Source: a bacterium (GTDB lineage: Bacteria > Patescibacteriota > Minisyncoccia > UBA6257 > GWB1-50-10). Taken from it: 64,000 nt of DNA. This document shows, in pieces, positions 4,477-58,802 of the stretch. Each line of letters begins with the position of its first letter. Within the stretch, counting starts at the first letter, position 1. The notes beneath the pieces are model-generated. The model did no database searches and was not told where the DNA came from. It was given only the letters and a program-made list of their open reading frames with translations. A program made the translations under genes and the position numbers. The stretch covers positions 45,538 through 109,537 of the forward strand of contig JAKAHD010000002.1 in assembly GCA_021815205.1 (NCBI GenBank), written 5' to 3'.

Positions 4477-5235
4477 ATGAAGTACTTGCATCTTAGTGAG
4501 ACAGTGGTCGTAAAAAAGATTTCCGAGAAGGATAACATCGGAGTATTCCATATTGAAGGATTGTATACGGGATACGGCACGACCCTTGGGAACGCGCTTC
4601 GGAGAGTGCTCCTCTCTTCGCTTCCAGGAGCGGCGATTACCCAAATCAAGATACAAGGAGTGGATCACGAGTTTTCGACGCTTCCCGGCATGATGGAAGA
4701 TGTCGTCGAATATACGCTGAACCTGAAAAAGGTGAGATTTGTGTTTAACGCGGAAGAGCCGCAGACCCTTTCTTTAAAGGTAAAAGGGGAACGCGAAGTA
4801 ACGGCGGCCGATATTGAATCTTCCCCGTTCGTGCAGGTAATCAATAAAGATCTGCATCTTGCAACGCTCACGAAAAAGTCCGCCGAACTCAACATGGAAC
4901 TTACCGTCGAGAAAGGATTGGGGTACGTAGTCTCCGAGATGCATCGCGTGGAGCGTCTCTCTGTAGGAACGGTGGTCTTGGACGCAATCTTCTCTCCCGT
5001 CGTGCGCGTTGCGTTCAAGGTCGAGGACATGCGCGTGGGAGACAGGACCAACTTCAATCGTTTGGAGCTTGAGATAGAAACGGATGGCTCGATCAGCCCC
5101 TCCGAGGCGCTCCATAAAGCGGGGAAGATCATGAAAGATCATTTTGAGAAGATAGCGGAGATAGAAGTGACTCCGGCGGCGCTCGCCGAGGAAGCGGAAG
5201 AAGAGAAAGAAAAGAAAACAAAAAAGAAGAAATAA
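4477..5235 (+). CDS. rpoA: DNA-directed RNA polymerase alpha subunit, N-terminal domain only (no alpha-CTD)
   Basis: alpha-NTD motifs (GYGTTLGNALRRVLLSS.PGAAI); 252 aa ending in an EEAEEEKEKKTKKKK tail; no HhH alpha-CTD. Confidence 0.9.
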   Translation: MKYLHLSETVVVKKISEKDNIGVFHIEGLYTGYGTTLGNALRRVLLSSLPGAAITQIKIQGVDHEFSTLPGMMEDVVEYTLNLKKVRFVFNAEEPQTLSLKVKGEREVTAADIESSPFVQVINKDLHLATLTKKSAELNMELTVEKGLGYVVSEMHRVERLSVGTVVLDAIFSPVVRVAFKVEDMRVGDRTNFNRLELEIETDGSISPSEALHKAGKIMKDHFEKIAEIEVTPAALAEEAEEEKEKKTKKKK

Positions 5236-5240
5236 ATTTT

Positions 5241-5352
5241 GCTACGAAATACGAAGGTAGTACGAATATACGAAATTATAGCTTACGATTTATATCACAT
5301 AACTAACAAGGAACGCGGATTCGTATATTCGTACACAATTCGTAATTCGTAG
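5241..5352. repeat. TACGAA-type intergenic imperfect palindrome (T-element copy 2)
   Basis: gctacgaaatacgaagg..tacgaatatacgaa / attcgtatattcgta..aattcgtaattcgtag between rpoA stop and rplQ start. Confidence 0.8.
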
Positions 5353-5361
5353 AGAAATCCT

Positions 5362-10051: not shown

Positions 10052-10103
10052 CACTACCTCCTTTAATCTATACGGGCTGATAATAAGTATAGCATGAATA
10101 AAT

Positions 10104-10171
10104 CCCGTAAGAAGCTCACACGGGGTAGTAAACCCAGCGTTCGCCACGGGGATTTCTGCTTTTCACGGGAT
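10104..10171. repeat. MITE-like element X (terminal inverted repeats cccgtRagaagc / gcttYtcacggg)
   Basis: tcccgtaagaagctcacacggggtagtaaacccagcgttcgccacggggatttctgcttttcacggga; second copy at 47103-47229 carries a nested insertion. Confidence 0.7.
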
Positions 10172-10364
10172 AAAACGAAGAAACTTGAATTCTTTCCAAA
10201 TTGAAGTTACAGTAGGGATGTTACCCCGCACATAATAAAGCGCATAAGAGAAGCCTAGGTTATATCGGGGTTACCTTGTACAATAGCCGAGTGTAGTATA
10301 AAGAGCCTTATGTGCGGGGTGCTCAATTTTATAGTTGCTCGCTCCGCTCGCAAATAAAATTGGC

Positions 10365-14986: not shown

Positions 14987-15173
14987 AAAAAAAGATTTTC
15001 ACAGATGGGAGACAGATTTCCACCGAATCACAGATGCGTCGTCACCTATTACCTGTTTTGATTTGTAGTTATCCGTGAGATCTGTTTGAGGCATAATGAA
15101 TACAATACAGAAATACTGAAGCCCCAAAATACCAAAACCGTGAGCAGTATCATCACGCGGAGACCCTATGACA

Positions 15174-15197
15174 GGTGCTATGCTATAGCATAGCACC
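15174..15197. repeat. perfect 24-bp palindrome ggtgctatgctatagcatagcacc (P family)
   Basis: Exact self-complementarity; one of 7 copies in the window. Confidence 0.9.
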
Positions 15198-15213
15198 CTA
15201 GAAAAGCATGTAT

Positions 15214-15310
15214 CCCTCGCATAACGTAAGAGAAAAAAGGAGAATATAATATGATGAAAACTTCGAAAAATGAAAGAGGTCGCTTTTATAGTGAGTTATG
15301 TGAGGGATGA
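15214..15310 (+). promoter_or_regulatory. leader element V: inverted repeat sequestering RBS plus 19-aa uORF (15251..15310) coupled by ATGA to downstream gene
   Basis: ccctcgcataac(15214-25) pairs with gttatgtgaggg(15295-306); uORF MMKTSKNERGRFYSELCEG, stop TGA 15308-10 overlaps ATG 15307-09; paralogous element before mreC. Confidence 0.6.
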
Positions 15311-15948
15311 ATCAAGAACAAAGAACTTGTCAGAATTGTAAACAAAGGTTCATGATTGAACCCGACGATTTTGTGTTCTACGAGAAGATAAAGGTGCCGC
15401 CTCCGACCTTTTGCCCCGAGTGTAGGAATGTGCGGAGGATGACGTGGCGCAATGAGCGGACGCTCTATAAGCGTGCCTGCGAAAAGACGGGAAAACAGAT
15501 CATCTCCTGCTTTGCTCCGGATTCCGGGATCCATGTATACGATCGCGATATATGGTGGTCAGACGAGTGGAATCCGCTCTCATTTGGTCGAGAATACGAT
15601 TTTTTGAGGCCGTTTTTCTCCCAGTTTCGCGAGCTGCTCGGCGCAGTCCCTATGCCGGCGGTATTCAACAGCCGATGTGTGCGGACTGAGTATGCGAATC
15701 ACGGCGGCGAGCTTAAAGATTCATACCTCGTGTTTGCCTCATGGGGAGGGGAGAATCTGCTCTACAGTAGCAAGATACAAAACGGAAAAGATTCACCCGA
15801 TCTCCTTGTTGTAAGTAATTCCGAACTCTGCTACGAGGTAATGAATTCTTCAAAACACTTCCACGGCGACACGCCCTGTCCGAACGAATTTGAGACAAGC
15901 TATGCCCCCAACCGCCCTGAGATCATCTATTGTGAAAGCTGCTACTAG
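15307..15948 (+). CDS. hypothetical Cys-rich protein with N-terminal zinc-ribbon (CxxC...CxxC)
   Basis: CQNCKQRF...CPECRNV and C-terminal CPNEF...CESCY; flanked by P palindromes. Confidence 0.5.
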   Translation: MNQEQRTCQNCKQRFMIEPDDFVFYEKIKVPPPTFCPECRNVRRMTWRNERTLYKRACEKTGKQIISCFAPDSGIHVYDRDIWWSDEWNPLSFGREYDFLRPFFSQFRELLGAVPMPAVFNSRCVRTEYANHGGELKDSYLVFASWGGENLLYSSKIQNGKDSPDLLVVSNSELCYEVMNSSKHFHGDTPCPNEFETSYAPNRPEIIYCESCY

Positions 15949-15962
15949 GCGGAGGTAGTGTG

Positions 15963-15996
15963 CCATAGGTGCTATGACATGTCATAGCACCTATGG
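15963..15996. repeat. perfect 34-bp palindrome ccataggtgctatgacatgtcatagcacctatgg (P family)
   Basis: Exact self-complementarity, 15 nt after stop of 15307..15948. Confidence 0.9.
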
Positions 15997-16032
15997 TGCG
16001 TGCCATATGCGATATTGATCGGTGGAGCCCCA

Positions 16033-16262
16033 CGGCTTTACCCCCACACCATGGGCGTAAGCTCATGGTGTGAGGGTTTACAGCCGTGGCACCGCTCCAC
16101 ACGCTTCGTCGGGCGGAACCCTCCGAAGCGTATCCTCCTTCGCTCAAGCTACGGAGGATGCCCTCGTGCACCCCCGCATCTATGTATAGGTGTGGGGGTG
16201 CATCCCTGCATTTACGGGTGGGGCTTTCTCCGCTTCGCGGAGGAGGGTAGATTCAAGTATGA
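16033..16262. repeat. composite repeat C1 (contains Y-type cccccacac...gtgtggggg palindromes plus ~150-bp conserved core shared with 57375-57560)
   Basis: acggctttacccccacaccatggg...tttacagccgtggcaccgctccacacgcttcgtcgggcggaaccctccgaagcg shared with C2; second Y-like palindrome at ~16168-16203. Confidence 0.7.
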
Positions 16263-16297
16263 TAAGGGGAGGAGTATAATAAACAAAACATGAGAAT

Positions 16298-16720: not shown

Positions 16721-16739
16721 GTACAGAAGGAAGAACAGG

Positions 16740-16767
16740 AGGGTGCTATGACATGTCATAGCACCCT
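16740..16767. repeat. perfect 28-bp palindrome agggtgctatgacatgtcatagcaccct (P family)
   Basis: Exact self-complementarity 20 nt after the stop of the TrpR-like gene. Confidence 0.9.
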
Positions 16768-18203: not shown

Positions 18204-19457
18204 ATGCGCGAGTCACAGTTATTCTTCAAGACCCAAAAGGACTTCCCCAAGGACGAGGTCGCGATAAACGCCCAGCTTCTCTTGCGGGCTAATTTTATCG
18301 AAAAACTCATGGCGGGCGTGTATTCGTACCTGCCACTGGGGTATCGCGTGCGCGAGAAGATTATTCGCATCATCGAGGAAGAAATGAACGCGTTGGGCGC
18401 GGCGGAGATCCTCATGCCCGCGCTCCATCCCCGCTCGGTGTGGGATGCGACGAAGCGGTGGGAGACGATGGGAAAGATCATGTACCAATTTAAAGATCAC
18501 TCGGGGCGCGAGGTGGGCTTGGGACCCACACATGAAGAAGTGATGGCAGTGATCGGAAAAACCGTGATTGATTCGTACGCCGATCTGCCGCGCGCCGTCT
18601 ACCAGATCCAGACGAAGTATCGTGACGAACCGCGCGCGAAGTCCGGCGTTTTGCGGGGAAGGGAGTTCACCATGAAAGATCTTTACAGTTTTCATACGGA
18701 CGAAGCGTCGCTCGCGGAGTTCTATGAAGAAGCGAAGAAAGCGTACACGAAAGTGTTTACCCGCGCGGGACTCAAGGCGTATGCGACGGAAGCTTCAGGG
18801 GGGGACTTTACGAAAGAGTATTCTCACGAGTTCATGGTGGAAACGAATGCGGGGGAAGACGAGATGATGCTCTGCCGGCTCTGCGGGTTCGCGCAGAATA
18901 CGGAGATCTCAAAGCTGAAGTCGGGGACACAATGCCCGAAATGCCAGAGCGGCGTCTTGGACAAGGTAACGAGCGTCGAAGTCGGAAATATCTTCAAACT
19001 CGGGACGAAGTTTTCGGAGCCCGTCGGATTCACCTACAAGAATCAGGAGGGGAGATCGATGCCCGTCGTGATGGGTTCGTACGGAATCGGTATCGAGCGG
19101 CTCTTGGGCACGATCGTCGAGGTGCATCATGACGACAAAGGGATTGTATGGCCAGAGGCCGTCGCCCCCTTTAAGGCGCATCTCCTCCGCATCGGGGAGG
19201 CGACCCCGGAGCTTCAACGACTCTCGGAAGAAACGTATCACGCGCTCCAAAAAAGCGGTGTCGAGGTGCTCTTTGACGATAGGGAGAGAGCGAGTTCCGG
19301 AGAGAAATTTTTCGACGCCGATCTCATAGGAATTCCGTGGCGCATCGTGGTGAGCGAGAAGACGCTCGTCCGGGAGAAGGTCGAACTCAAGCGCCGGAAT
19401 GAGCAAGAGGTAAAAGTAATTACACTGAACGCATGCATAAAATCACTTACTCTATAG
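18204..19457 (+). CDS. proS: prolyl-tRNA synthetase (class II, no INS editing domain; Zn-ribbon insertion)
   Basis: Class II motifs; 417 aa; CRLCGF...CPKCQSG. Confidence 0.9.
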   Translation: MRESQLFFKTQKDFPKDEVAINAQLLLRANFIEKLMAGVYSYLPLGYRVREKIIRIIEEEMNALGAAEILMPALHPRSVWDATKRWETMGKIMYQFKDHSGREVGLGPTHEEVMAVIGKTVIDSYADLPRAVYQIQTKYRDEPRAKSGVLRGREFTMKDLYSFHTDEASLAEFYEEAKKAYTKVFTRAGLKAYATEASGGDFTKEYSHEFMVETNAGEDEMMLCRLCGFAQNTEISKLKSGTQCPKCQSGVLDKVTSVEVGNIFKLGTKFSEPVGFTYKNQEGRSMPVVMGSYGIGIERLLGTIVEVHHDDKGIVWPEAVAPFKAHLLRIGEATPELQRLSEETYHALQKSGVEVLFDDRERASSGEKFFDADLIGIPWRIVVSEKTLVREKVELKRRNEQEVKVITLNACIKSLTL

Positions 19458-19462
19458 GAGGT

Positions 19463-20488
19463 ATGACTGTCAAGAAAGTCATCGGAATTGATCTCGGGAC
19501 CGACACCACGCAGGTGTACCTGAAGGGCACGGGCATTATTGTGAACGAGCCCTCGATTGTGGCGTTCAATAACCGTACGAACCGAATTGTCGCGGTGGGG
19601 AGCGATGCCAAGCGGATGCTCTCGCGCACGCCGAGCCACGTGACCGCCTTACACCCCATGGTGAACGGCGTGATCGGCGATTTCGACATGGCAAAGGAGA
19701 TGATGCAGCGCTTTCTAAAAATGAAACATATTCCGTGGTCGTGGTTCACGGAAACCGTGGTAAGCGTGCCGACGAATCTTACGGAAGTGGAGCGGAAGTC
19801 GGTCGAGGATCTCCTGCGGGAAGTAGGAGTGAACAAGGTGCATTTGATCGAGCAGCCGATCGCGGCGGCCTTGGGAAGCGGGCTCGATATCAATCAACCC
19901 ACCGCCTACCTCATTGTCGATATCGGGGCGGGAACGACCGACATGGCGATTATTTCCATGAACGGGGTTGTGGCGTCGCGCCGTTTGAAAATCGCAGGGG
20001 ATTATTTGAACCAGGAGATCATCAAAGGCATGAAAGAAGAGCTTAAACTTCATATCGGCGAGCCCACCGCGGAGGAGATAAAGATTGGAGTGGGGGAGGC
20101 GATACCGCAGAGCGAGCGGCTCGACCTTGTGGTCCGCGGCCGCGACGCGGGAAGCGGCCTGCCGCGCGAAGCGGTTATTAAGGATACACAGGTACGGTAC
20201 TGGCTCACGAGGCCCTTGAAGCTCATTATCGAATCCTTGAAGGAACTCATCGATATCACTCCTCCCGAGCTCGTAGGGGATGTGTATAAGAACGGAATCT
20301 ATCTTTGCGGCGGAGGAAGCCTCTTGCGCGGCGTTGAGCAGTTGTTCGAAAAGGAGATCGGCGTCGAGGTGCACCTCGTGGACGAGCCGCTCTTGTGCGT
20401 TGCGCGGGGAACCGGCCTCGTTGCCGAACACATTGATGCGTTTGCGGCGATCGTGGACACGTTCTCAAGCGCGAAGGTCGCATTATAA
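19463..20488 (+). CDS. mreB: MreB-like actin homolog, paralog 2
   Basis: MTVKKVIGIDLGTDTT..NEPS.VA; directly upstream of mreC-mreD-PBP2. Confidence 0.85.
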   Translation: MTVKKVIGIDLGTDTTQVYLKGTGIIVNEPSIVAFNNRTNRIVAVGSDAKRMLSRTPSHVTALHPMVNGVIGDFDMAKEMMQRFLKMKHIPWSWFTETVVSVPTNLTEVERKSVEDLLREVGVNKVHLIEQPIAAALGSGLDINQPTAYLIVDIGAGTTDMAIISMNGVVASRRLKIAGDYLNQEIIKGMKEELKLHIGEPTAEEIKIGVGEAIPQSERLDLVVRGRDAGSGLPREAVIKDTQVRYWLTRPLKLIIESLKELIDITPPELVGDVYKNGIYLCGGGSLLRGVEQLFEKEIGVEVHLVDEPLLCVARGTGLVAEHIDAFAAIVDTFSSAKVAL

Positions 20489-20490
20489 AC

Positions 20491-20590
20491 CCCTCACATA
20501 ACAGAGAAGTTAAGAGGGAGATAGTTGAGCAGTATGAAAACCCAAGGTTTTAGTACAAGTCGATTGAGTCACGAGTTATGTGAGAGATGA
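20491..20590 (+). promoter_or_regulatory. leader element V copy 2: IR plus 18-aa uORF (20534..20590) ATGA-coupled to mreC
   Basis: ccctcacataac(20491-502) / gttatgtgagag(20575-586); uORF MKTQGFSTSRLSHELCER, stop TGA 20588-90 overlaps mreC ATG 20587-89. Confidence 0.6.
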
Positions 20591-21309
20591 GACCGTTTAG
20601 GAATCTCGTTGCGGGAGCGGTTGCGCTTATACTGCTTCTTATCATTCTTGTATGGCAGGATCCGATCGTGCATTTTTTTGAGAATGTACGCGTATTTTTT
20701 GCAGGTTCGGCGGACCCCTCATTCAATTATGGTTCATTTGAGTCGCTCAAGATCGAGAATGCCGCGCTCCGCACCCAGTGTGCCGCGGCCTCATCTTCCC
20801 CGCGCGCTCCGTGGTTTTCGACGAGTTCCGCGGACCGCGCGCGGTATAACCTCCGTGAAGTACAAATCTACTCCCGCTACCCGTTCAATAATGAGGCGTC
20901 GGTTTCGATTAATGCGGGCTCGGAGGATGGAATACGAGCGGGAATGCCGGTCTTAGCCGCGCCGGGGGTGTTGTTCGGGAAGGTGAAAACGGTGGAGCGG
21001 ACGCGGAGCGAAGTCGAAACGATCTTTGATCCCTCCTGGCGCAGTACGGTACTTGTGGGAGACGCCCGCACGAAGGCGGTCTTTGTCGGCGCGTCCTTCC
21101 CGTATCTTGATCTTATCCCGAAAAACGCTTCGACTACGGCGGGAGATGTCATTCTTAATGCGGATCCCGATTTTCCATTGAATCTCCTCATCGGAAACGT
21201 CGCCTCCCTTCAAGAGGGTGCGAATGCGCTCTGGCTCCAGGCAAAAGTGGATCCTTCGTTCCGATTCGATGCGCTTCGCCGGGTATTTGTCGTTCTCAAC
21301 TATCCGTAG
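20587..21309 (+). CDS. mreC: rod shape-determining protein MreC
   Basis: N-terminal TM, coiled coil, C-terminal beta domain (GMPVLAAPGVLFGKV..V....S.V); synteny mreB-mreC-mreD-mrdA. Confidence 0.8.
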   Translation: MRPFRNLVAGAVALILLLIILVWQDPIVHFFENVRVFFAGSADPSFNYGSFESLKIENAALRTQCAAASSSPRAPWFSTSSADRARYNLREVQIYSRYPFNNEASVSINAGSEDGIRAGMPVLAAPGVLFGKVKTVERTRSEVETIFDPSWRSTVLVGDARTKAVFVGASFPYLDLIPKNASTTAGDVILNADPDFPLNLLIGNVASLQEGANALWLQAKVDPSFRFDALRRVFVVLNYP

Positions 21310-21800: not shown

Positions 21801-23628
21801 AGACATACTGACCGACCGCGCCGTCGAAGAAGACCTCCTCGAAGTGCCGCTCACCGACAAGGTATTTAGGCGCTTTTCCTGGATCTCGGGGATCGTGATA
21901 TTTCTTGTGCTCGCACAGATCGTGAACGTGGGAGTATTCCAGCACGGGTTCTATGTGAAGCGCGCGATCGCGAATATGAGCGATATAAAAACGGAGGTTG
22001 CGCCGCGCGGAATTATCTATGATCGTTTCGGAAATCCGCTTATCAAAAACGATCCCGCATTCGATGCGTTTCTTGTTCCGAGCGAACTGCCGAAAGACGC
22101 CGATTCGAGGAGCGCCATTATTGCGAGAGTAAGTAAGCTGCTCGGCCTACAGGAGGCGGAGGTGCGGATGAAGATCGAGAAACGGGACTGGAGTTTGCGC
22201 TCGGACCTGCTCTTGAAACACGCCATTTCGCACGATGAGATCGTTGCGCTTTCTTCCGCAGCGCTCCAGGGGATTCAGATCACCCCCTCGTTTGAGCGAG
22301 TGCCCATTATACCCTTTACGTTCGCGCATCTTTTGGGATATACAGGACTCGTGAACGAGAGCGACCTAAGGGGAAATCAGAATCTCGCCATTGACGATCA
22401 AGTAGGAAGAGCCGGACTTGAGCGCGTGTACGACACCTACCTCCGCGGAGCGGATGGGAAAACCATGATCGTAACAAATGCGCGGGGCGAGCGGCAGAAC
22501 GAACGGGTGATTGCGCAGCCGACGATAGGCGATTCCCTCGCCACCTATATTGATAAGGATATGCAGCGTTATTTTTACGACGAGCTGCAGACTAAGATTC
22601 GCGCGCTCGGAAGAAACGTTGGGGTGGGAATCGCAATGAATCCCCAGAACGGAGAAGTGCTCGCACTCTTCAGCATTCCTTCATACGATTCAAATCACGT
22701 CGCGGCGTCCCTGAACGCGCCCTTTAATCCGATGTTTAACCGCGCGGTGAGCGGGCTCTACAGCCCGGGTTCGACCGTAAAGCCGCTTGTCGCGACTGGA
22801 GCTCTGGCGGAGGGGATACTGGACCCGAACCATGAGATCTACTCCCCGGGGTATCTCGATATCCCAAATCCGTACGACCCCTCGCATCCATCCCGATTTC
22901 TGGATTGGCAGCCTCAGGGATGGGTGAATCTCTTCTCCGCACTTGCGCGTTCGAGCGATGTCTACTTCTACGAAGTGGGCGGGGGATTTGGCGATCAGCG
23001 GGGCTTGGGCATTACGCGCCTTAGAAGCTGGTGGGAGAAGTTTGGATTGAACGTAACAACAGGGATTGATCTGCCGAACGAGAATGCGGGCTTTCTCCCC
23101 GACCCGCAATGGAAAGAGCGGGTGAAGGGTGAACCGTGGCGCCTCGGCGATACCTTCAATGTTTCGATCGGGCAGGGCGATCTCGTGATTACGCCGATCG
23201 AGCTTCTTAATTATGTGAACGCGATTGCGAATGGAGGGAAATTCGTTACGCCTCGTGTTATGAAAGATATAAAAGACGCGCAAGGGAACATCGTTCTTAA
23301 GAGCGCCCCCTCGGTGCGTGCTGACATAAGTTCCGAGATAGGAAAAGTTCTTCCTCTTGTGCGGCAAGGTATGCGCGACACGGTAATGAAACCCTACGGC
23401 ACCGCGTATCTTCTGCATGATCTTCCCATCGAGGTTGCGGCGAAGACCGGTTCCGCGCAAGTCGAAAATAACGCGAAGACGAACGCATTTTTCGTTGGGT
23501 ACGCGCCGTACCAAGATCCGCAGATTGCGATCGTGATCCTTGTCGAGAATGCGAGAGAAGGGAGCTTGAACGTAGTGCCGGTAGCGCGGGATTTCTTTCT
23601 GTGGTACTATAAGAACAGAATGAAATAG
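21739..23628 (+). CDS. mrdA: penicillin-binding protein 2 (class B PBP)
   Basis: SxxK (STVKP), SxN, KTG(S) motifs; N-terminal TM; start may be 21769 (MECMHG). Confidence 0.85.
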   Translation: MESYPGLWYGMECMHGDLNLEDILTDRAVEEDLLEVPLTDKVFRRFSWISGIVIFLVLAQIVNVGVFQHGFYVKRAIANMSDIKTEVAPRGIIYDRFGNPLIKNDPAFDAFLVPSELPKDADSRSAIIARVSKLLGLQEAEVRMKIEKRDWSLRSDLLLKHAISHDEIVALSSAALQGIQITPSFERVPIIPFTFAHLLGYTGLVNESDLRGNQNLAIDDQVGRAGLERVYDTYLRGADGKTMIVTNARGERQNERVIAQPTIGDSLATYIDKDMQRYFYDELQTKIRALGRNVGVGIAMNPQNGEVLALFSIPSYDSNHVAASLNAPFNPMFNRAVSGLYSPGSTVKPLVATGALAEGILDPNHEIYSPGYLDIPNPYDPSHPSRFLDWQPQGWVNLFSALARSSDVYFYEVGGGFGDQRGLGITRLRSWWEKFGLNVTTGIDLPNENAGFLPDPQWKERVKGEPWRLGDTFNVSIGQGDLVITPIELLNYVNAIANGGKFVTPRVMKDIKDAQGNIVLKSAPSVRADISSEIGKVLPLVRQGMRDTVMKPYGTAYLLHDLPIEVAAKTGSAQVENNAKTNAFFVGYAPYQDPQIAIVILVENAREGSLNVVPVARDFFLWYYKNRMK

Positions 23629-23632
23629 CGTA

Positions 23633-23745
23633 GCTACGAAATACGAATTTTCTACGAATATACGAATCTCCACGTCGTTCTGATTTACCTCCGGCGGAGA
23701 AGACCCTTCGTGTTCGTATATTCATAATCAATTCGTAATTCGTAG
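23633..23745. repeat. TACGAA-type intergenic imperfect palindrome (T-element copy 3)
   Basis: gctacgaaatacgaattttctacgaatatacgaa / ttcgtatattcataatcaattcgtaattcgtag between PBP2 and greA. Confidence 0.8.
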
Positions 23746-23753
23746 AGAATCAC

Positions 23754-24212
23754 ATGCAAAATTATTTAACAAAGGAACGACATGAGGAGCTTGTCGCGGA
23801 GTTAGATGATTTAAAGACGAAAGGGCGGCAGTCGGTTTCTGAGCGGCTGCGGCACGCGAAGGATCTGGGTGATCTCTCGGAGAACGCGGAGTATCAGGCG
23901 GCGCGCGAAGAGCAGTCGCTTTTGGAGCAGAAGATAGTCCAGCTCGAGTCGCTTTTGAAGTACTCGTCGATTATCGAGCACCAGCCGAAGGGAGGTACGG
24001 CGGTGCGGCTCGGATCGAAAGTGAAAGTGAAGAAGAATGGGTCGTCCGTCGAGTACACGCTCGTGGGCTCGAACGAGGCGGACCCCTTTCAGAATCTTAT
24101 CTCGAACGAGTCGCCCTTGGGGCGCGAGCTCCTTGGAAAGAATGTGGGGGATACGATACAGGTGCAGACGCCGAAAGGAACGGCAGAATATATAATCGAA
24201 GAAATTCACTGA
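23754..24212 (+). CDS. greA: transcription elongation factor GreA
   Basis: LT..G...L..EL..L....R..V...I..A...GDLSENAEY..A...Q. Confidence 0.9.
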   Translation: MQNYLTKERHEELVAELDDLKTKGRQSVSERLRHAKDLGDLSENAEYQAAREEQSLLEQKIVQLESLLKYSSIIEHQPKGGTAVRLGSKVKVKKNGSSVEYTLVGSNEADPFQNLISNESPLGRELLGKNVGDTIQVQTPKGTAEYIIEEIH

Positions 24213-24214
24213 GG

Positions 24215-24320
24215 GCTACGAAATACGAATTTTGTATGAATATACGAAAATACGAGATCCTTCACTTCGTTCAGGATGACGGCTGTATTCGTATATTCGT
24301 AAGTGATTCGTATTTCGTAG
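24215..24320. repeat. TACGAA-type intergenic imperfect palindrome (T-element copy 4; W-element fragment in centre)
   Basis: gctacgaaatacgaattttgtatgaatatacgaaaatacga...attcgtatattcgtaagtgattcgtatttcgtag; centre gatccttcacttcgttcaggatgac. Confidence 0.8.
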
Positions 24321-24340
24321 CATAATCTTAATAGAGTTCA

Positions 24341-25783
24341 ATGTTAGAGGACATCATGCAAGAACGGCGGGAAAAACTTTCCCGCTATACAAAAGAAGCG
24401 GATCCGTATCCGGCCCGCGTGAAGAGAACCGTAACGGCGCATGAGGCGCTTCTTCGGTTCGGCGCATTCCTAAAGGCAAACAAAACGATATGGCTTACGG
24501 GGAGAGTGATGAGTATGCGCGACCAGGGAGGGATCGTGTTTTTGCATATTGAGGATAAAAGCGGAACGATTCAAATCATCTTGAGAAAAGAAGAAACGAA
24601 AGGGTTCCGGGTGCTTCAGAAGACGCTCGACAAGGGCGACTTCCTTGAGGTTGCGGGGAAGGCGATGAAGACGAAGCGAGGGGAGAAGAGCGTGCTCGCA
24701 TCGCGGGCGCGGATTATCGCGAAGAGTCTCCGGCCCATTCCCGATTCGTGGTTCGGGCTCGAGGATGCGGAGACGCGCCTTCGGAAACGTTACCTCGATG
24801 CGATCGTGCACCCCGAAACCAGAGAACTCATGGAAAAGAAAGCGGTGTTTTGGGAGACCGTTCGGGAATTTCTGAAGCACGCATCGTTTCTGGAGGTCGA
24901 GACGCCCGTCCTGGAGCCGATTCCGGGAGGCGCCGAGGCGGAACCCTTCATCACGCACCATAACGCTTTGGACAGGAACTTCTATCTCCGCATCTCGCTT
25001 GAACTCTCATTGAAAAAGATGCTTGTCGCCGGACTTGAGCGGGTATTTGAGATTGGAAGGATTTTTAGGAACGAGGGGATCGATCGCGAGCATCTACAGG
25101 ACTACACGCAGATGGAGTGCTACATGGCGTATGCGGACTATCACGACATGATGCGGCTTACCGAAAAAATGTTCAAAGCAATCGTGAAACGAACCTGCGG
25201 GACATTCACCACCTCTCAAGGAGGAAAGAAGGTAAACTGGGGAACAAAATGGAAGAGCGTTGACTATTATGCGGCGTTCAAAAGATATAACGGCATCGAT
25301 TTGAAATCCGCGCCGGTCGAATCTCTGCGCGCTCGCGCGCGCGAGCTCGGCATCCCGCTCGATGCGTCCGTCGGGAAGGGAAAACTTATCGATCTTATAT
25401 ACAAAAAAACGGTGCGCCCGAAACTCGTGAATCCTTGTTTTCTCGTGAATCCTCCGGTTGCGATCGAGCCGCTCGCAAAACGCGTGCCGGAAGACCGGGA
25501 TCGCGTGGAGCGATTCCAGATTGTCGCCCTCGGTACGGAGCTCGGAAAAGGATTCTCGGAGTTGAACGATCCGATCGATCAGCGGGCGCGATTCGAGGAG
25601 CAAATGGCGCTTCGAGACGCGGGCGACAAGGAAGCGCAGATGCTCGACGAAGATTTTATAGAAGCATTGGAATACGGCATGCCTCCCGCCGCCGGGTTTG
25701 GCATGTCGGAGCGCTTTTTTGCGGTTTTGATGGACAAGCCCGTACGGGAGACGGTATTTTTTCCTTTGATGAGAGAACGGTGA
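24341..25783 (+). CDS. lysS: lysyl-tRNA synthetase (class II)
   Basis: OB anticodon-binding domain then class II core (FLEVETP, RISLEL..K, FEIGRIFRNEG, ELG.GFSE). Confidence 0.9.
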   Translation: MLEDIMQERREKLSRYTKEADPYPARVKRTVTAHEALLRFGAFLKANKTIWLTGRVMSMRDQGGIVFLHIEDKSGTIQIILRKEETKGFRVLQKTLDKGDFLEVAGKAMKTKRGEKSVLASRARIIAKSLRPIPDSWFGLEDAETRLRKRYLDAIVHPETRELMEKKAVFWETVREFLKHASFLEVETPVLEPIPGGAEAEPFITHHNALDRNFYLRISLELSLKKMLVAGLERVFEIGRIFRNEGIDREHLQDYTQMECYMAYADYHDMMRLTEKMFKAIVKRTCGTFTTSQGGKKVNWGTKWKSVDYYAAFKRYNGIDLKSAPVESLRARARELGIPLDASVGKGKLIDLIYKKTVRPKLVNPCFLVNPPVAIEPLAKRVPEDRDRVERFQIVALGTELGKGFSELNDPIDQRARFEEQMALRDAGDKEAQMLDEDFIEALEYGMPPAAGFGMSERFFAVLMDKPVRETVFFPLMRER

Positions 25784-25786
25784 TAT

Positions 25787-25901
25787 GCTACGCAATACGA
25801 ATTTTGTAGGAATATACGAAAACGAAGAATATGCAAGCAGCGTGTTACTGAGCGGTATGTGTTGTACATTCGTATATTCGTAATTAATTCGTATTTCGTA
25901 G
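25787..25901. repeat. TACGAA-type intergenic imperfect palindrome (T-element copy 5)
   Basis: gctacgcaatacgaattttgtaggaatatacgaaaacgaa ... attcgtatattcgtaattaattcgtatttcgtag between lysS and serS. Confidence 0.8.
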
Positions 25902-25920
25902 CGAATTTTTATAGAAAATT

Positions 25921-47036: not shown

Positions 47037-47102
47037 TTCACCCCGTTAGAAGTTGCGCAGAAATAATGATGCGTCTTCTTCTATGATGCGATTATCATAA
47101 AT

Positions 47103-47229
47103 CCCGTGAGAAGCTCACATGGGGTAGTAAACCCCGCGTTCGCCACGGGACGAGGCATTCACCCCCACACTAAATGAGTGTGGGGGTTCATCCCTGTGGC
47201 ACGCCCGGGGTTTTCTGCTTCTCACGGGA
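47103..47229. repeat. MITE-like element X with nested Y palindrome (47161-47187)
   Basis: tcccgtgagaagctcacatggggtagtaaaccccgcgttcgccacggg[acgaggcattcacccccacactaaatgagtgtgggggttcatccctgtggcacgcccgg]ggttttctgcttctcacggga vs uninterrupted copy at 10104-10171. Confidence 0.75.
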
Positions 47230-47363
47230 TAAAGAACTGGGAGTGATCCCAATGTGAGACTTCTAACGGGGTAAAATCAGCGAAATTTTGAACAACAAAA
47301 AGAATACGGGGCAACAACAATTATGAATACCAACAATCCTCCGCTATAATATATAATAATTAT

Positions 47364-54184: not shown

Positions 54185-54739
54185 ATGACCCCAGAAACAA
54201 TAATTCTTATTATCGCCGCGGTGATTATAGTGTGGGCGATTTCTTCGTTTAACGGTCTTGTTTCAAGGAAAAACAGGGTTGCCGAGGCGTGGTCGGATAT
54301 CGAGGTCCAGCTCAAACGCCGGTACGATCTGATCCCGAATCTCGTCGAGACCGTGAAAGGATATGCCGCGCACGAGAAATCCGTGCTTGAGAATGTGACC
54401 AATGCCCGTACTGCCGCAATGTCTACCGAAGATCCCAAGGCGAAACTCCAGGCGGAAAACCAACTCTCCCAAACCTTGAAGACGCTCTTCGCGGTCGCGG
54501 AGAATTATCCCCAGCTCAAGGCGAACGAAAACTTTTCGAAACTGCAGGACGAACTCACCGATACGGAAGACAAGATTCAAGCCGCGCGCAGGTTTTATAA
54601 CGGCAATGTCCGCGACTACAACACGGCGATCGAGGTGTTTCCGAAGAACGTGATTGCCGGCATGTTCGGCTTCACGCACAAAGAACTCTTTGACGTGGAC
54701 AACGACGTCGAGAAACAACCAATCCAAGTCAAGTTCTAA
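54185..54739 (+). CDS. lemA: LemA family protein
   Basis: N-terminal TM; W.D.E.QLKRR.DLIPNLV..VKGYA.HE; typical lemA-htpX pairing. Confidence 0.85.
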   Translation: MTPETIILIIAAVIIVWAISSFNGLVSRKNRVAEAWSDIEVQLKRRYDLIPNLVETVKGYAAHEKSVLENVTNARTAAMSTEDPKAKLQAENQLSQTLKTLFAVAENYPQLKANENFSKLQDELTDTEDKIQAARRFYNGNVRDYNTAIEVFPKNVIAGMFGFTHKELFDVDNDVEKQPIQVKF

Positions 54740-54741
54740 CG

Positions 54742-54852
54742 CACGAATGGGCACAAATCGCCCACGAATATCACAAATTCGTATGAGTGGTATTCGTGTT
54801 CGTCGACCGGCGGGATTTGTGTCGCATTTGTGGTTTATTAGTGTATATTCGT
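54742..54852. repeat. CACGAAT/ATTCGTG-type imperfect palindrome in htpX leader
   Basis: gcacgaatgggcacaaatcgcccacgaatatcacaaattcgtatgagtggtattcgtgttcg ... tatattcgtgcg ending at htpX start. Confidence 0.65.
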
Positions 54853-54856
54853 GCGT

Positions 54857-55765
54857 ATGACCTTATACACCCAAGCATCCTCAAATGTCCGAAAAACGTG
54901 GGCGCTTCTCATGGGTTTTTTCGTGCTCATTATCGCGATCGGCTGGACTTTTAGTTATGCGTATCAGTCGCCGGGCATTCTTGTTTTTGCCGTTATGGTG
55001 AGTGTGATAATGAGTGTCACGAGCTACTGGTTTTCGGATAAGATCGTGCTTGCGAGTGCGGGTGCGAAACCAATCGAGAAAAAGGACAATCCGGAATTAT
55101 ATCGCCTCGTCGAAAATCTTACTATCGCCTCTGGGCTCCCAATGCCGAAGCTTTACGTGATCCCGAATCCCGCGCCGAACGCGTTCGCGACGGGGCGCGA
55201 CAAGGAACACGCGGTCGTAGCCGTAACGCAGGGACTTTTAGATGTCATGAACAAGCAGGAGCTTGAGGGAGTCCTCGCGCATGAGCTTTCGCACATCGGC
55301 AACAAGGATATGCTCGTCTCGACGGTCGTCGTGGTCCTTGTGGGTGTAATTTCGCTCCTCGCCGACTGGTTCTTACGGATGAGTTTCTTCGGTGGAAGGA
55401 GAGATGACAGGGACTCGGGCGGCAATATTATGTTTTTTCTTGGCATCGCAGGCGCGATTCTCGCGCCGATTGCGGCGACCTTGATCCAGCTCGCGATCTC
55501 AAGAAAGCGGGAGTTTTTGGCGGACGCCTCGGGCGCCCTCCTCACGCGGTATCCCGAAGGGCTCGCGAGCGCACTCCAAAAACTGGAGGCGAACCCGTAC
55601 AGCATGAAAGCATCGTCCGCAACCGCGCATCTCTATTTTGCAAACCCGTTCAAGGCGGATAGGGGAGAGAAAGATTCGAAGAAGATACCCTGGGTTACGA
55701 AACTTTTCATGACGCATCCCCCGATTGAGGAGCGCATTAAAGTATTGCGTCAGATGTCGGTCTGA
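54857..55765 (+). CDS. htpX: zinc metalloprotease HtpX (M48)
   Basis: HELSHIGNKDM (HExxH), 4 TM, C-terminal FMTHPP.EERI. Confidence 0.85.
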   Translation: MTLYTQASSNVRKTWALLMGFFVLIIAIGWTFSYAYQSPGILVFAVMVSVIMSVTSYWFSDKIVLASAGAKPIEKKDNPELYRLVENLTIASGLPMPKLYVIPNPAPNAFATGRDKEHAVVAVTQGLLDVMNKQELEGVLAHELSHIGNKDMLVSTVVVVLVGVISLLADWFLRMSFFGGRRDDRDSGGNIMFFLGIAGAILAPIAATLIQLAISRKREFLADASGALLTRYPEGLASALQKLEANPYSMKASSATAHLYFANPFKADRGEKDSKKIPWVTKLFMTHPPIEERIKVLRQMSV

Positions 55766-55881: not shown

Positions 55882-55915
55882 CCGAGGGTGCTATGACATG
55901 TCATAGCACCCTCGG
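55882..55915. repeat. perfect 34-bp palindrome ccgagggtgctatgacatgtcatagcaccctcgg (P family)
   Basis: Exact self-complementarity. Confidence 0.9.
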
Positions 55916-57374: not shown

Positions 57375-57560
57375 CTACGGCTTTACCCCCACACCATGGG
57401 CTCATGATGTGGGGGGTTTACACCCGTGGCACCGCTCCACACGCTTCGTCAGGCGAAACCCTCCGAAGCGATCCTTCTTCGCCAAAGGCTACGAAGGATA
57501 CCCTCCTTTGCATTCATCCATGGGCTTACACCCGTGGTTTTCTGCGAAGGAGGGTAAAAA
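57375..57560. repeat. composite repeat C2 (Y palindrome 57385-57417 plus conserved core shared with C1)
   Basis: acggctttacccccacaccatggg...tttacacccgtggcaccgctccacacgcttcgtcaggcgaaaccctccgaagcg aligns with 16033-16130. Confidence 0.7.
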
Positions 57561-57635
57561 AGTTTCGTGATGACCTGAACTGAAAGCGGTTCCATAATTT
57601 TTGACCGGAGATTTTGAAAATATGATTTCTGCCCC

Positions 57636-57661
57636 AGGTGCTATGCTATAGCATAGCACCT
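57636..57661. repeat. perfect 26-bp palindrome aggtgctatgctatagcatagcacct (P family)
   Basis: Exact self-complementarity. Confidence 0.9.
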
Positions 57662-57708
57662 AATGTATTTCAATACCTGTAGACATTGTTATCCTCTCTC
57701 CTGCGAAA

Positions 57709-58224: not shown

Positions 58225-58245
58225 GTAGTATCGAGTAATTGGTGA

Positions 58246-58271
58246 GGGTGTTATGACGCGTCATAACACCC
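58246..58271. repeat. perfect 26-bp palindrome gggtgttatgacgcgtcataacaccc (P family variant)
   Basis: Exact self-complementarity. Confidence 0.85.
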
Positions 58272-58490
58272 CAAATTTCTTGCGTGGTACCCCAGTGGTA
58301 AATAGGATGGATAAAAAATATAAGAACCCGGGATTGCTCCTGAGTTCTTTTCGTATCACCTCATAAATAAGCCGCGTATTTGATTTTACATCTTGCGGGA
58401 TGTAGAGTAACGAAACTGGAAGAGTCGCATTGCGCCTCATCGGCGCATCCGCCGCTGAGACGAAAGCAGTAAATAAGATGTACTACAAAA

Positions 58491-58580
58491 GGAGGGGTCG
58501 CATAGCGGTCTAGTGCGCAGTCCTGGAAAGACTGTATACCCGAAAGGGTATCGAGGGTTCAAATCCCTCCCCCTCCGCCA
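58491..58580 (+). tRNA. tRNA-Ser (anticodon GGA), CCA encoded
   Basis: Acceptor ggagggg/cccctcc, anticodon stem cagtc/gactg loop cuGGAaa, long variable arm tataccc-gaaa-gggtat, T-arm gaggg-ttcaaat-ccctc, discriminator G. Confidence 0.85.
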
Positions 58581-58619
58581 ATACACAAACAGGATATCTT
58601 TATGGTATCCTGTTTGTGT
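58581..58619 (+). terminator. hairpin terminator after tRNA-Ser
   Basis: atacacaaacaggatatc-ttta-tggtatcctgtttgtgtat perfect 17-bp stem. Confidence 0.6.
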
Positions 58620-58741
58620 ATCTTGACGTGCGGATTTGAACGGAACTTTCGCGCCTGCAGGGCAGGATTCAGCGAAAGTCCGTGGCTTCGGAGGAGCAAT
58701 TTCATTTGAGCGAAGCGAATATGTAAATTGCGGAGGAGAAG

Positions 58742-58802
58742 AAATCCCTCCCCCTCCGCCAATACACAAACAGGATATCTTTATGGTATCCTGTTTGTGT
58801 AT
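58742..58802 (+). repeat. 61-bp exact direct repeat of tRNA-Ser 3' end + terminator (copy 1 at 58561-58621); att-site-like
   Basis: aaatccctccccctccgccaatacacaaacaggatatctttatggtatcctgtttgtgtat occurs twice 181 bp apart. Confidence 0.85.

Follow-up and report, generated by a model that had tools for sequence, protein, structure and literature searches.

A 64,000-nucleotide stretch of a Patescibacteriota genome (assembly GCA_021815205.1, contig JAKAHD010000002.1, positions 45,538 to 109,537; hereafter the window) holds two loci, at 15213-15307 and 20490-20587, with a common architecture: an inverted repeat, a short open reading frame in its loop (the mini-ORF), and an ATGA in which the stop of the mini-ORF overlaps the start of the gene downstream, which encodes a Cys-rich protein at the first site and MreC at the second. 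The explanation that best accounts for our results, and that we consider quite likely, is that both loci are copies of an element that sits on start codons and resembles MITEs (miniature transposable elements bounded by inverted repeats); the downstream genes would then be translated by coupling to the mini-ORF and the family would be mobilized by a GIY-YIG nuclease. The mobile nature of the family is, from comparison of its copies, close to certain, and the two window loci are probably old, now immobile copies of a non-autonomous form of ~95 nt (coordinates in Table 1).

Structure of the two loci

A sequence-only reading of this DNA had described both sites as leaders in which 12-nt arms hide the ribosome-binding site of the main gene, and had proposed a riboregulatory device conserved on two unrelated genes. 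The inverted repeats, the loop ORFs of 18–19 codons and the ATGA overlaps are all present as it described, the last four codons of each mini-ORF are indeed the right arm with the TGA overlapping the main ATG, and Pfam confirms that the second gene is mreC. The inner 12-nt arms do pair (CCCTCGCATAAC, 15214-15225, with GTTATGTGAGGG, 15295-15306, at site 1, and CCCTCACATAAC, 20491-20502, with GTTATGTGAGAG, 20575-20586, at site 2, each followed by ATGA), but the repeat is in fact 13 nt long, starting with a T and ending with the A of the main ATG; taken over both sites, the left arm reads (T/C)CCCTC(G/A)CATAAC and the right arm GTTATGTGAG(G/A)GA. The arms of copy 1 have one mismatch, which is a G.U pair in the + strand RNA, and those of copy 2, which has two decayed positions, have two. 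An 18-nt string from the right arm (GAGTTATGTGAGRGATGA) has two exact occurrences in the 64-kb window against 0.03 expected. At site 1 the mini-ORF stop (TGA, 15308-15310) consists of the first three bases of the proximal target-site copy and overlaps the ATG at 15307, and the host ATG is composed of the last A of the element and the TG of the target copy TGAA.

The right arm had also been credited with the Shine-Dalgarno (SD) sequence of the main gene. The sole SD-like motif by the host ATG is a GAGG that lies within the repeat stem at a distance of only 1 nt, too close for it to act as the SD of the host gene, and the usable SDs (AAGGAG and GAGGGAG) sit in the loop, where by their position they serve the mini-ORF and not the host gene. 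Folding of the + strand RNA, one of the checks that had been suggested, gave stable structures for both leaders (-28.1 kcal/mol, z -4.7, at site 1; -26.6 kcal/mol, z -3.5, at site 2), each closed by the repeat stem. An RNAalifold alignment of seven copies of the window's subtype recovered only the repeat stem, with 0 compensatory pairs and no conserved internal RNA structure. As there is no compensatory change, the hairpin is explained by repeats at the DNA level and the RNA structure evidence is neutral. A promoter and terminator scan around site 1 returned counts no higher than in shuffled sequence, and Rfam 15, searched with the entire window at the gathering score and with the two leaders at E<=1, gave nothing relevant, only chance-level snoRNA matches (E ~0.5).

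A multi-copy family with terminal inverted repeats and target-site duplications

When 185,579 species genomes were scanned with the pattern CCTCRCATAAC-N55-85-GTTATGYGAG, 20 stretches were returned, 15 of them from four uncultured bacteria, all metagenome-assembled genomes (MAGs) of Patescibacteria, or candidate phyla radiation (CPR): ARS1290, FK3.bin18, clean1859 and one Sungiibacteriota MAG, commonly with several matches per contig. These 15 match on both strands, i.e., their arms are perfect inverted repeats; the remaining five are single-strand matches from unrelated phyla and were set aside as chance. A relaxed search of these loci identified 20 copies beyond the two in the window. Their terminal repeat is 13 nt (T-CCCTCACATAAC ... 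GTTATGTGAGGG-A, giving element ends TCCCTCACATAAC...GTTATGTGAGGGA), with 0–1 arm mismatches in nearly all copies, and short copies (94–104 nt) without a transposase gene number at least 11 in the ARS1290 loci, at least seven in FK3.bin18 and two in the window. Identical 4-nt direct flanks border 16 of the 20 non-window copies, these being TGAA or its complement TTCA in 12 and otherwise ATCA, TTTA, TTGA or CTCA; three more duplicated target sites were found at L027, L033 and L038/39. The target is T(G)AN; in the great majority of cases this is the TGAA directly after the A of an ATGAA start, and these 4 nt become duplicated. A lack of further copies had been named as grounds for refuting the riboregulatory reading; many copies do exist in other genomes, but this points to a mobile element and not to a regulon. 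A scan of viral contigs gave 0 matches to the element.

The mreB/mreC junction supplies an empty site. In L026 (GCA_009712145.1), the closest available relative, whose MreC is 72% identical, the uninterrupted site reads TTATGAAA; mreB and mreC overlap there via ATGA (...gtcgcaTTATGAAatcgttcagaaatctc), the junction reads gcaTTATGAAatcg at the position of the window's distal target copy, and gcaTTATGAAatcgttcag stands where the window holds the 98-nt element, the alignment placing the insertion exactly at that point. After insertion the left TGAA decayed to TAAA, which still stops mreB, and the right TGAA to TGAG. Two more distant genomes carry different elements at this junction, one in clean1859 (L027) with a 125-nt element that has the same repeats and a perfect TGAA/TGAA duplication, and one (L028) with a 125-nt element bounded by other repeats (TCCCGCACCTT...AAGGTGCGGGA). 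The housekeeping order mreB-mreC-mreD-PBP2 of the window is conserved, and element copy 2 is identical across three further assemblies of the same species. For the Cys-rich gene, an 80%-identical relative (L001) starts ...cccccATGAAC without an element; the element was not found at either Cys-rich locus searched (L001 and L002), and upstream synteny differs at these, so that neither is a clean empty site.

These results bear directly on the idea of a host-evolved translational riboregulator, in which hairpin and upstream ORF (uORF) would have been selected gene by gene as a dedicated leader acting in cis, so as to link, for instance, mreC and the Cys-rich gene to the state of translation. The stable closing stem, the conserved and ATGA-coupled uORF, and the fixation of the site 2 copy, identical in four assemblies of the species with its uORF kept despite decayed repeats, would all suit such a leader. 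However, in other genomes the element stands, with target-site duplications, in front of more than 20 genes that are unrelated to one another; the nearest relative has an empty site; covariation is absent from the stem, with no conserved internal structure and no Rfam match; and the ATGA itself is assembled from the element end and the target. We regard a selected leader as unlikely, and as an origin for the architecture it is largely refuted: the identity between the two loci that had been read as a conserved device is due to transposition, to judge from the duplications, the empty site, the terminal inverted repeats and the lack of covariation. A single copy could, nevertheless, have been co-opted for regulation later.

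Two likenesses to recombination sites were also considered. An integron attC site has RYYYAAC/GTTRRRY core sites, an imperfect stem with extrahelical bases, and a place in a cassette array. GCATAAC and GTTATGT each differ from the core by a single position, but the stem here is perfect with a 70-nt loop; an attC site was rejected as the neighbors are the housekeeping genes mreB-mreC-mreD-PBP2 and the elements carry duplications. A resemblance to Xer/dif half-sites (CGCATAA / TTATGT) was dropped given the duplications, the gene context and the 70-nt spacing.

Insertion on start codons and the probable role of the mini-ORF

Seventeen of the 20 further copies in the four CPR genomes lie exactly on the ATG of an intact gene. 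Counted over 28 distinct copies, an ATG stands at the junction in 25 and opens a real ORF in 24 of those. The downstream genes include those for L2, L24, S8, L29, a PBP transpeptidase, UDP-glucose dehydrogenase, a LOG-family protein and others, all full-length by Pfam and with domains at the expected N-terminal positions, and in FK3.bin18 two copies lie within the ribosomal-protein operon, between L14 and L24 and between S14 and S8. The final base of the element is an A, so that a start codon arises again at the junction A^TGAA, and since the ATGA thus consists of the element's last base plus the duplicated target, the stop/start overlap is a product of insertion chemistry. The distal duplicate is preceded by an A in 14 of the 16 copies with perfect duplications (ATGAA, ATGAT or ATGAG), which, read from these flanks, is the old ATG left on the far side. 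The host gene stays intact but is separated from its former ribosome-binding site. The orientation of the interior relative to the downstream gene is constant (9/9 scored copies of group B, a second subtype, and all copies with a GIY-YIG ORF).

The right repeat (GTT ATG TGA GGG ATG A) has stops in two of the three frames, at 0–5 nt from the rebuilt ATG: in the frame of the gene itself the stop precedes that ATG by 3 nt, in a second frame it overlaps the ATG (GGA TGA; ...LCEG-stop), and the third has no stop. The old ATG falls by frame in 13, 11 and 1 copies, the stop-free frame being used in 1 of 25, a bias with a nominal binomial P of 5e-4 over copies that are not independent. A coupled ORF that begins at the old ATG and stays open across the whole element to the repeat-encoded stop is present in nine copies (32–41 codons), one that begins at an internal ATG in ten (18–24 codons), and three have no usable coupled ORF. 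The subtype of the window, group A, which it shares with clean1859 and FK3.bin18 (seven copies in three genomes), is recognized by a purine-rich SD, an (A/G)TGAAA(A/T)C start, a length of 18–19 codons and a terminal ...ELCEG-stop; over its seven copies frame 0 has 0 stops, frame +1 has 13 and frame +2 has 17, and indels within the mini-ORF are multiples of 3. With a stop-free frame 0 in 7/7 copies and 3-nt indels only, the mini-ORF is clearly under constraint, and on account of this constraint ATGA-coupled re-initiation, the mechanism proposed in the sequence-only reading, stays the best reading of downstream translation; judged from the copies, the host genes are probably translated by termination-reinitiation after the mini-ORF. 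Ribosomes that end the mini-ORF would re-initiate at the host ATG, and mini-ORF translation would also melt the repeat hairpin that otherwise would bury that ATG; coupling and hairpin melting together would account for the tolerated insertions in essential genes.

The constraint might instead be thought to reflect a functional small protein (MKT...SR.. ELCEG) with incidental repeats, as the frame is open in 7/7 copies and the peptides follow a partial pattern (M-K-[TS]...S-R-[LP]..[DNH]-E-L-C-E-G). The repeat, however, dictates the last four to five of these residues, the middle is variable, and in the other subtypes this frame encodes different peptides or a different frame is in use; because the peptides vary between subtypes, it is the openness and the end point that are conserved and not the sequence. 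We therefore find a functional peptide very improbable.

A GIY-YIG nuclease gene between the same ends

One 241-nt copy (L021:3081-3321, FK3.bin18) contains a remnant of a GIY-YIG domain (PF01541, 34.3 bits, E=3e-8), in a reading frame that terminates within the right repeat, and in the 125-nt mreB/mreC element of clean1859 a larger internal part of this ORF has been deleted (MNPSHN-MHYV...SQHASGLCRMRKWMQHGLMHVM-stop). A word-indexed protein search with the reconstructed nuclease returned a single match, P0146 (88 aa), which is encoded by a full-length element in clean1859 reading ...TAAGGAGGtaaaagagATTTA^TCCCTCACATAAC ATG CAT TAT GTT TAT ... ACG CAT GTT ATG TGA GGGA^TGAAactg (carets mark the element ends). 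The P0146 ATG abuts the left repeat, in frame with the old-ATG position, the ORF terminates at the TGA contained in the right repeat, and the downstream gene (549 aa) starts at the last A of the element. P0146 matches PDB 1zg2 (UPF0213; E=1.2e-5) and SLX1 (E=5.5e-3), with the catalytic residues Y, Y, R, H and E aligned to both, as well as PF01541; on this similarity it is a stand-alone GIY-YIG protein of the Slx1/UPF0213 type. A coding partner that shares the ends of the short copies (L031:926-1209) thus exists, and its GIY-YIG nuclease is not a known transposase class. A tblastn search of the window with the nuclease found no nuclease gene, from which it follows that the window copies are non-autonomous, and the same search of the ARS1290 and FK3.bin18 loci found only the two remnants already known.

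From the sequence relationships, we give about an even chance to the possibility that the GIY-YIG nuclease mobilizes the family. It would make a restriction-like staggered cut at A^TGAA, at the target and at both element ends, and host ligation would follow; as a hypothesis, this cut-and-ligate scheme would explain why 4 bp are duplicated, why the orientation is fixed and why the empty site is clean.

Terminal inverted repeats with a fixed-length duplication are a hallmark of DDE transposition, and on that established ground the element could be an ordinary MITE of a conventional DDE insertion sequence located elsewhere, with the GIY-YIG gene a passenger or an independent selfish gene. The ARS1290 loci, which are the richest in copies, have no GIY-YIG gene, and the ~95-nt interiors are unrelated to the nuclease ORF, both of which suit such an origin. 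Against it, every coding element found between these and several similar-ended repeats encodes only the ~85-aa nuclease, and as the nuclease fills these elements (281–325 nt) there is no space for a transposase; ~200 kb of loci yielded neither an unpaired repeat nor a longer element; and the nuclease ORF is integral to the ends, its start abutting the left repeat and its stop lying within the right one. We consider a DDE origin improbable, only marginally less so than the riboregulatory leader.

Several observations weigh against our preferred explanation, i.e., start-codon insertion of a MITE-like element with coupling and nuclease mobilization. As to insertion, the window copies lack a perfect duplication (TGTA/TGAA and TAAA/TGAG), and it is by the repeats, the interior and the empty site that they are assigned to the family; the flanks of four group A copies (Table 1) are inverted, TTCA...TGAA, an arrangement that is not accounted for by a simple duplication of 4 bp and that would fit a duplication-free insertion into a palindromic ttcATGaa; the enrichment at start codons could partly reflect purifying selection in very compact genomes and not targeting; and since the copies are related by descent, the counts overstate their independence. 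As to coupling, the SD-to-ATG spacing is 13–15 nt in several group A copies, and the three copies without a usable coupled ORF (L010, L004 in + orientation and L022:1654) precede intact genes, so coupling cannot be obligatory. As to mobilization, neither the window nor ~60 kb sampled from ARS1290 contains a nuclease gene, the interiors of the ~95-nt copies have no similarity to the nuclease ORF, the demonstrable derivatives being the 125- and 241-nt copies only, and we know of no GIY-YIG nuclease that acts as an integration catalyst.

A wider family of GIY-YIG mini-genes

When metagenomes were scanned with P0146, 177 relatives emerged; 80 loci with 65 distinct ORFs of ~80–90 aa were kept, and the repeat boundaries of these genes were taken from local alignment. 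Inverted repeats within ~35 nt bound 24 of the 65 distinct ORFs, forming elements of 281–325 nt; the repeats belong to several sequence families, all with (T)CC...GG(A) ends. Many of these elements end 0–6 nt from an ATG (GGGA^TGAA, GAGGA^TGAA, GGGA^TGAC, GGAGGA^TAAATG and GGAGGGTAAATATG), and at L033 and L038/39 there are perfect TGAA duplications with the old ATG kept. The family is large (2,915 clusters at E<=1e-3 among 1.84 billion representatives). Among its long members with an N-terminal GIY-YIG domain, five of ten sampled continue in frame into a type IV pilin, so that the N-terminal methylation motif of the pilin comes to lie at residue ~90–115; such GIY-YIG-pilin fusions are what an in-frame insertion at a start codon would produce.

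Other GIY-YIG mini-gene loci directly precede tRNA genes. At L044, L078, L083, L086, L087 and L090 the mini-genes have no recognizable inverted repeats and lie immediately upstream of tRNA genes, a position that may be a second preferred niche of the family.

We tentatively put forward, while rating it somewhat short of an even prospect, that these genes form an undescribed class of prokaryotic mobile element, a ~285-bp, inverted-repeat-bounded, bare Slx1-type GIY-YIG gene. Such an element would move by restriction-like staggered cutting at A^TGAA and host ligation; it would parasitize start codons, expressing itself from the host's ribosome-binding site and ATG; the stop built into its right repeat would return the ribosome to the host gene; the ~95-nt derivatives, window copies included, would have evolved their own SD and mini-ORF; and many bacterial stand-alone UPF0213/Slx1-like genes would be at least partly selfish, not repair genes.

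Comparison with known systems and significance

Known MITEs derive from DDE insertion sequences. The bacterial examples, such as the Correia elements of Neisseria and the pneumococcal RUP, are ~100 nt, with terminal inverted repeats, a duplication, multiple copies and presence/absence polymorphism (Delihas 2011, PMC3184786), and our element resembles them in forming short non-coding copies beside genes, a location in which MITEs alter expression signals (PMC3184786). It differs from them in that its only coding relative is a GIY-YIG nuclease, and in that its copies lie exactly on start codons, with the ATG rebuilt and an ORF ending at it. The Neisseria REP2 and Borrelia IR repeats supply a ribosome-binding site and ATG (PMC3184786). 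REP2, however, lacks both terminal inverted repeats and a duplication and itself provides the start, whereas in our element the SD serves the mini-ORF and the host ATG is reached via the stop/start overlap. The Rickettsia palindromic elements are mobile repeats that survive in or near essential genes by means of an open reading frame (PMC3184786). Those elements are translated within the host protein; here the frame ends before or over the host ATG and leaves the host protein unchanged.

The seg genes of phage T4 are free-standing GIY-YIG homing endonuclease genes, and they resemble our element as selfish GIY-YIG genes lodged between conserved ones. Seg proteins carry an additional DNA-binding domain and have one cognate homing site, without inverted repeats or duplication, in contrast to the 88-aa nuclease domain alone, the repeats of 13–19 nt and the 4-bp duplication found here; the many unrelated targets of our element share (A)TGAA only, and not the single site of a homing endonuclease. 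Prokaryotic stand-alone Slx1-like proteins were described as a minimal GIY-YIG domain by Dunin-Horkawicz et al. 2006 (PMC1564403), who cite an earlier predicted role in double-strand-break repair and ask if further GIY-YIG groups are molecular parasites. By sequence P0146 falls in this UPF0213/Slx1-like family (PDB 1zg2), and the repeat-bounded organization on start codons adds to the picture of PMC1564403. Termination-reinitiation at ATGA or TGAnnnATG overlaps, with the upstream stop overlapping the downstream start or only a few nt away from it, is known (PMC6728339, PMC10666635, PMC12548453). In known coupling the upstream ORF is a neighboring gene, whereas here a mobile element supplies it, apparently in compensation for its own insertion. 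Our literature search, which was incomplete in coverage and leaves novelty unproven, found no account of inverted-repeat-bounded GIY-YIG mini-genes, of their MITEs, or of start-codon insertion with coupling.

The element would represent a mode of colonizing extremely compact genomes at the start codons of essential genes, even within a ribosomal-protein operon, with self-repair of the insertion damage by a rebuilt ATG, built-in stops and a coupled mini-ORF. It ties a large stand-alone GIY-YIG family of unknown function to inverted-repeat-bounded mobile units, and offers a testable answer to the 2006 question on GIY-YIG molecular parasites; should the nuclease be enough for mobility by itself, these units would rank with the smallest known autonomous elements and have a new transposition chemistry. 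There are consequences for annotation, such as spurious N-terminal fusions (GIY-YIG plus pilin) and mis-called starts, and the ~95-nt elements would be natural portable cassettes for translational coupling.

Other features of the window

Table 1. Positions of the element copies, their parts and host genes, related copies at other loci, and further repeats of the window
Feature	Position	Strand	Details
Element copy 1	15213..15307	+	95 nt, non-autonomous, group A
Copy 1 left repeat, TCCCTCGCATAAC	15213-15225	+	
Copy 1 right repeat, GTTATGTGAGGGA	15295-15307	+	
Copy 1 distal flank, ATGTA (expected ATGAA)	15208..15212	+	Remnant of pre-insertion start codon and distal target-site copy
Mini-ORF 1 SD, AAGGAG	15237..15242	+	8 nt 5' of ATG 15251
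Mini-ORF 1, MMKTSKNERGRFYSELCEG	15251..15310	+	19 codons; right repeat forms the last four
Host gene 1, Cys-rich protein	15307..15948	+	213 aa, function unknown, no Pfam match
Element copy 2	20490..20587	+	98 nt, group A
Copy 2 left repeat, CCCCTCACATAAC	20490-20502	+	First T changed to C
Copy 2 right repeat, GTTATGTGAGAGA	20575-20587	+	One G changed to A
Copy 2 distal target-site copy, TAAA	20486..20489	+	Decayed from TGAA; TAA is the present mreB stop
Copy 2 proximal target copy, TGAG	20588-20591	+	Decayed from TGAA; MreC Lys2 changed to Arg
Mini-ORF 2 SD, GAGGGAG	20514..20520	+	6 nt 5' of in-frame TTG 20525, 15 nt 5' of ATG 20534
Mini-ORF 2, MKTQGFSTSRLSHELCER	20534..20590	+	18 codons (21 if from TTG 20525); TGA overlaps mreC ATG 20587
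Host gene 2, mreC	20587..21309	+	Pfam; ATG rebuilt at element junction
Upstream gene, mreB	19433..20488	+	Pre-insertion TGA stop overlapped mreC ATG (ATGA)
Full-length element (clean1859)	L031:926-1209		284 nt; encodes P0146 only
Inverted-flank TTCA/TGAA copies, window subtype	L003:2036-2129; L004:53-146; L020:1304-1400; L020:2387-2483		
AT-rich hairpin repeat, five copies	163-301; 5222-5358; 23614-23749; 24196-24324; 25768-25905		E.g., between PBP2 and greA
Palindrome GGGTGCTATGACATGTCATAGCACCC and variants, six copies	15171-15199; 15965-15993; 16739-16767; 55884-55912; 57634-57662; 58244-58272		

The L003 copy and both L020 copies with inverted flanks lie 6–9 nt past the TAA stop of the upstream gene. 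The Cys-rich protein of host gene 1 belongs to a large CPR-wide family (310 matches), most members of which are annotated as partial at contig ends, many being 300–370 aa as compared to 213 aa in the window; the partial members at contig ends and the longer relatives suggest a multi-copy, assembly-breaking family of which the window copy is possibly truncated.

The window contains several further repeats. A second inverted-repeat element (TCCCGT(A/G)AGAAGC ... GCTT(T/C)TCACGGGA) is present at 10103-10170 (68 nt) and 47102-47229 (128 nt), each copy flanked by a perfect 4-bp direct repeat, TAAA; its TCCC...GGGA ends and T-N-A-N duplication are as in the main family, and the 47102 copy is nested in another inverted-repeat pair at 47040-47272 (ACCCCGTTAGAAG...). 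A 98-nt hairpin at 10223-10320 (CCCCGCACATAAT ... CTTATGTGCGGGG), 45 nt upstream of the first mreB gene (ATG 10365), has a similar core (CACATAA / TTATGTG) without mini-ORF, ATGA or duplication, and may be a decayed member of a sister family. At 54738-54857 there is an inverted repeat of an AT-rich ACGAAT type, the right arm of which has as its last base the A of the start codon of a 302-codon ORF (ATTCGTGCGTA^TGAC). The long AT-rich hairpin repeat of Table 1 (GCTACGAAATACGAA...TTCGTATTTCGTAGC) is intergenic in all five copies, with arms of 33–39 nt and loops of 39–48 nt, and two of the six copies of the perfect palindrome bracket the Cys-rich gene and its element.

Two regions, 16000-16290 and 57380-57560, are ORF-free, GC-rich and highly self-complementary, and share a 92-nt repeat (16074-16165 / 57414-57505, 83% identical) with no Rfam match; they could be nested repeat elements or a structured RNA of unknown type. 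Finally, an exact 61-nt duplication (58561-58621 / 58742-58802), which begins in the 3' end of tRNA-Ser(GGA) (58491-58580), by analogy resembles the pair of attachment sites that would flank an integrated element of very small size or one mostly lost by deletion.

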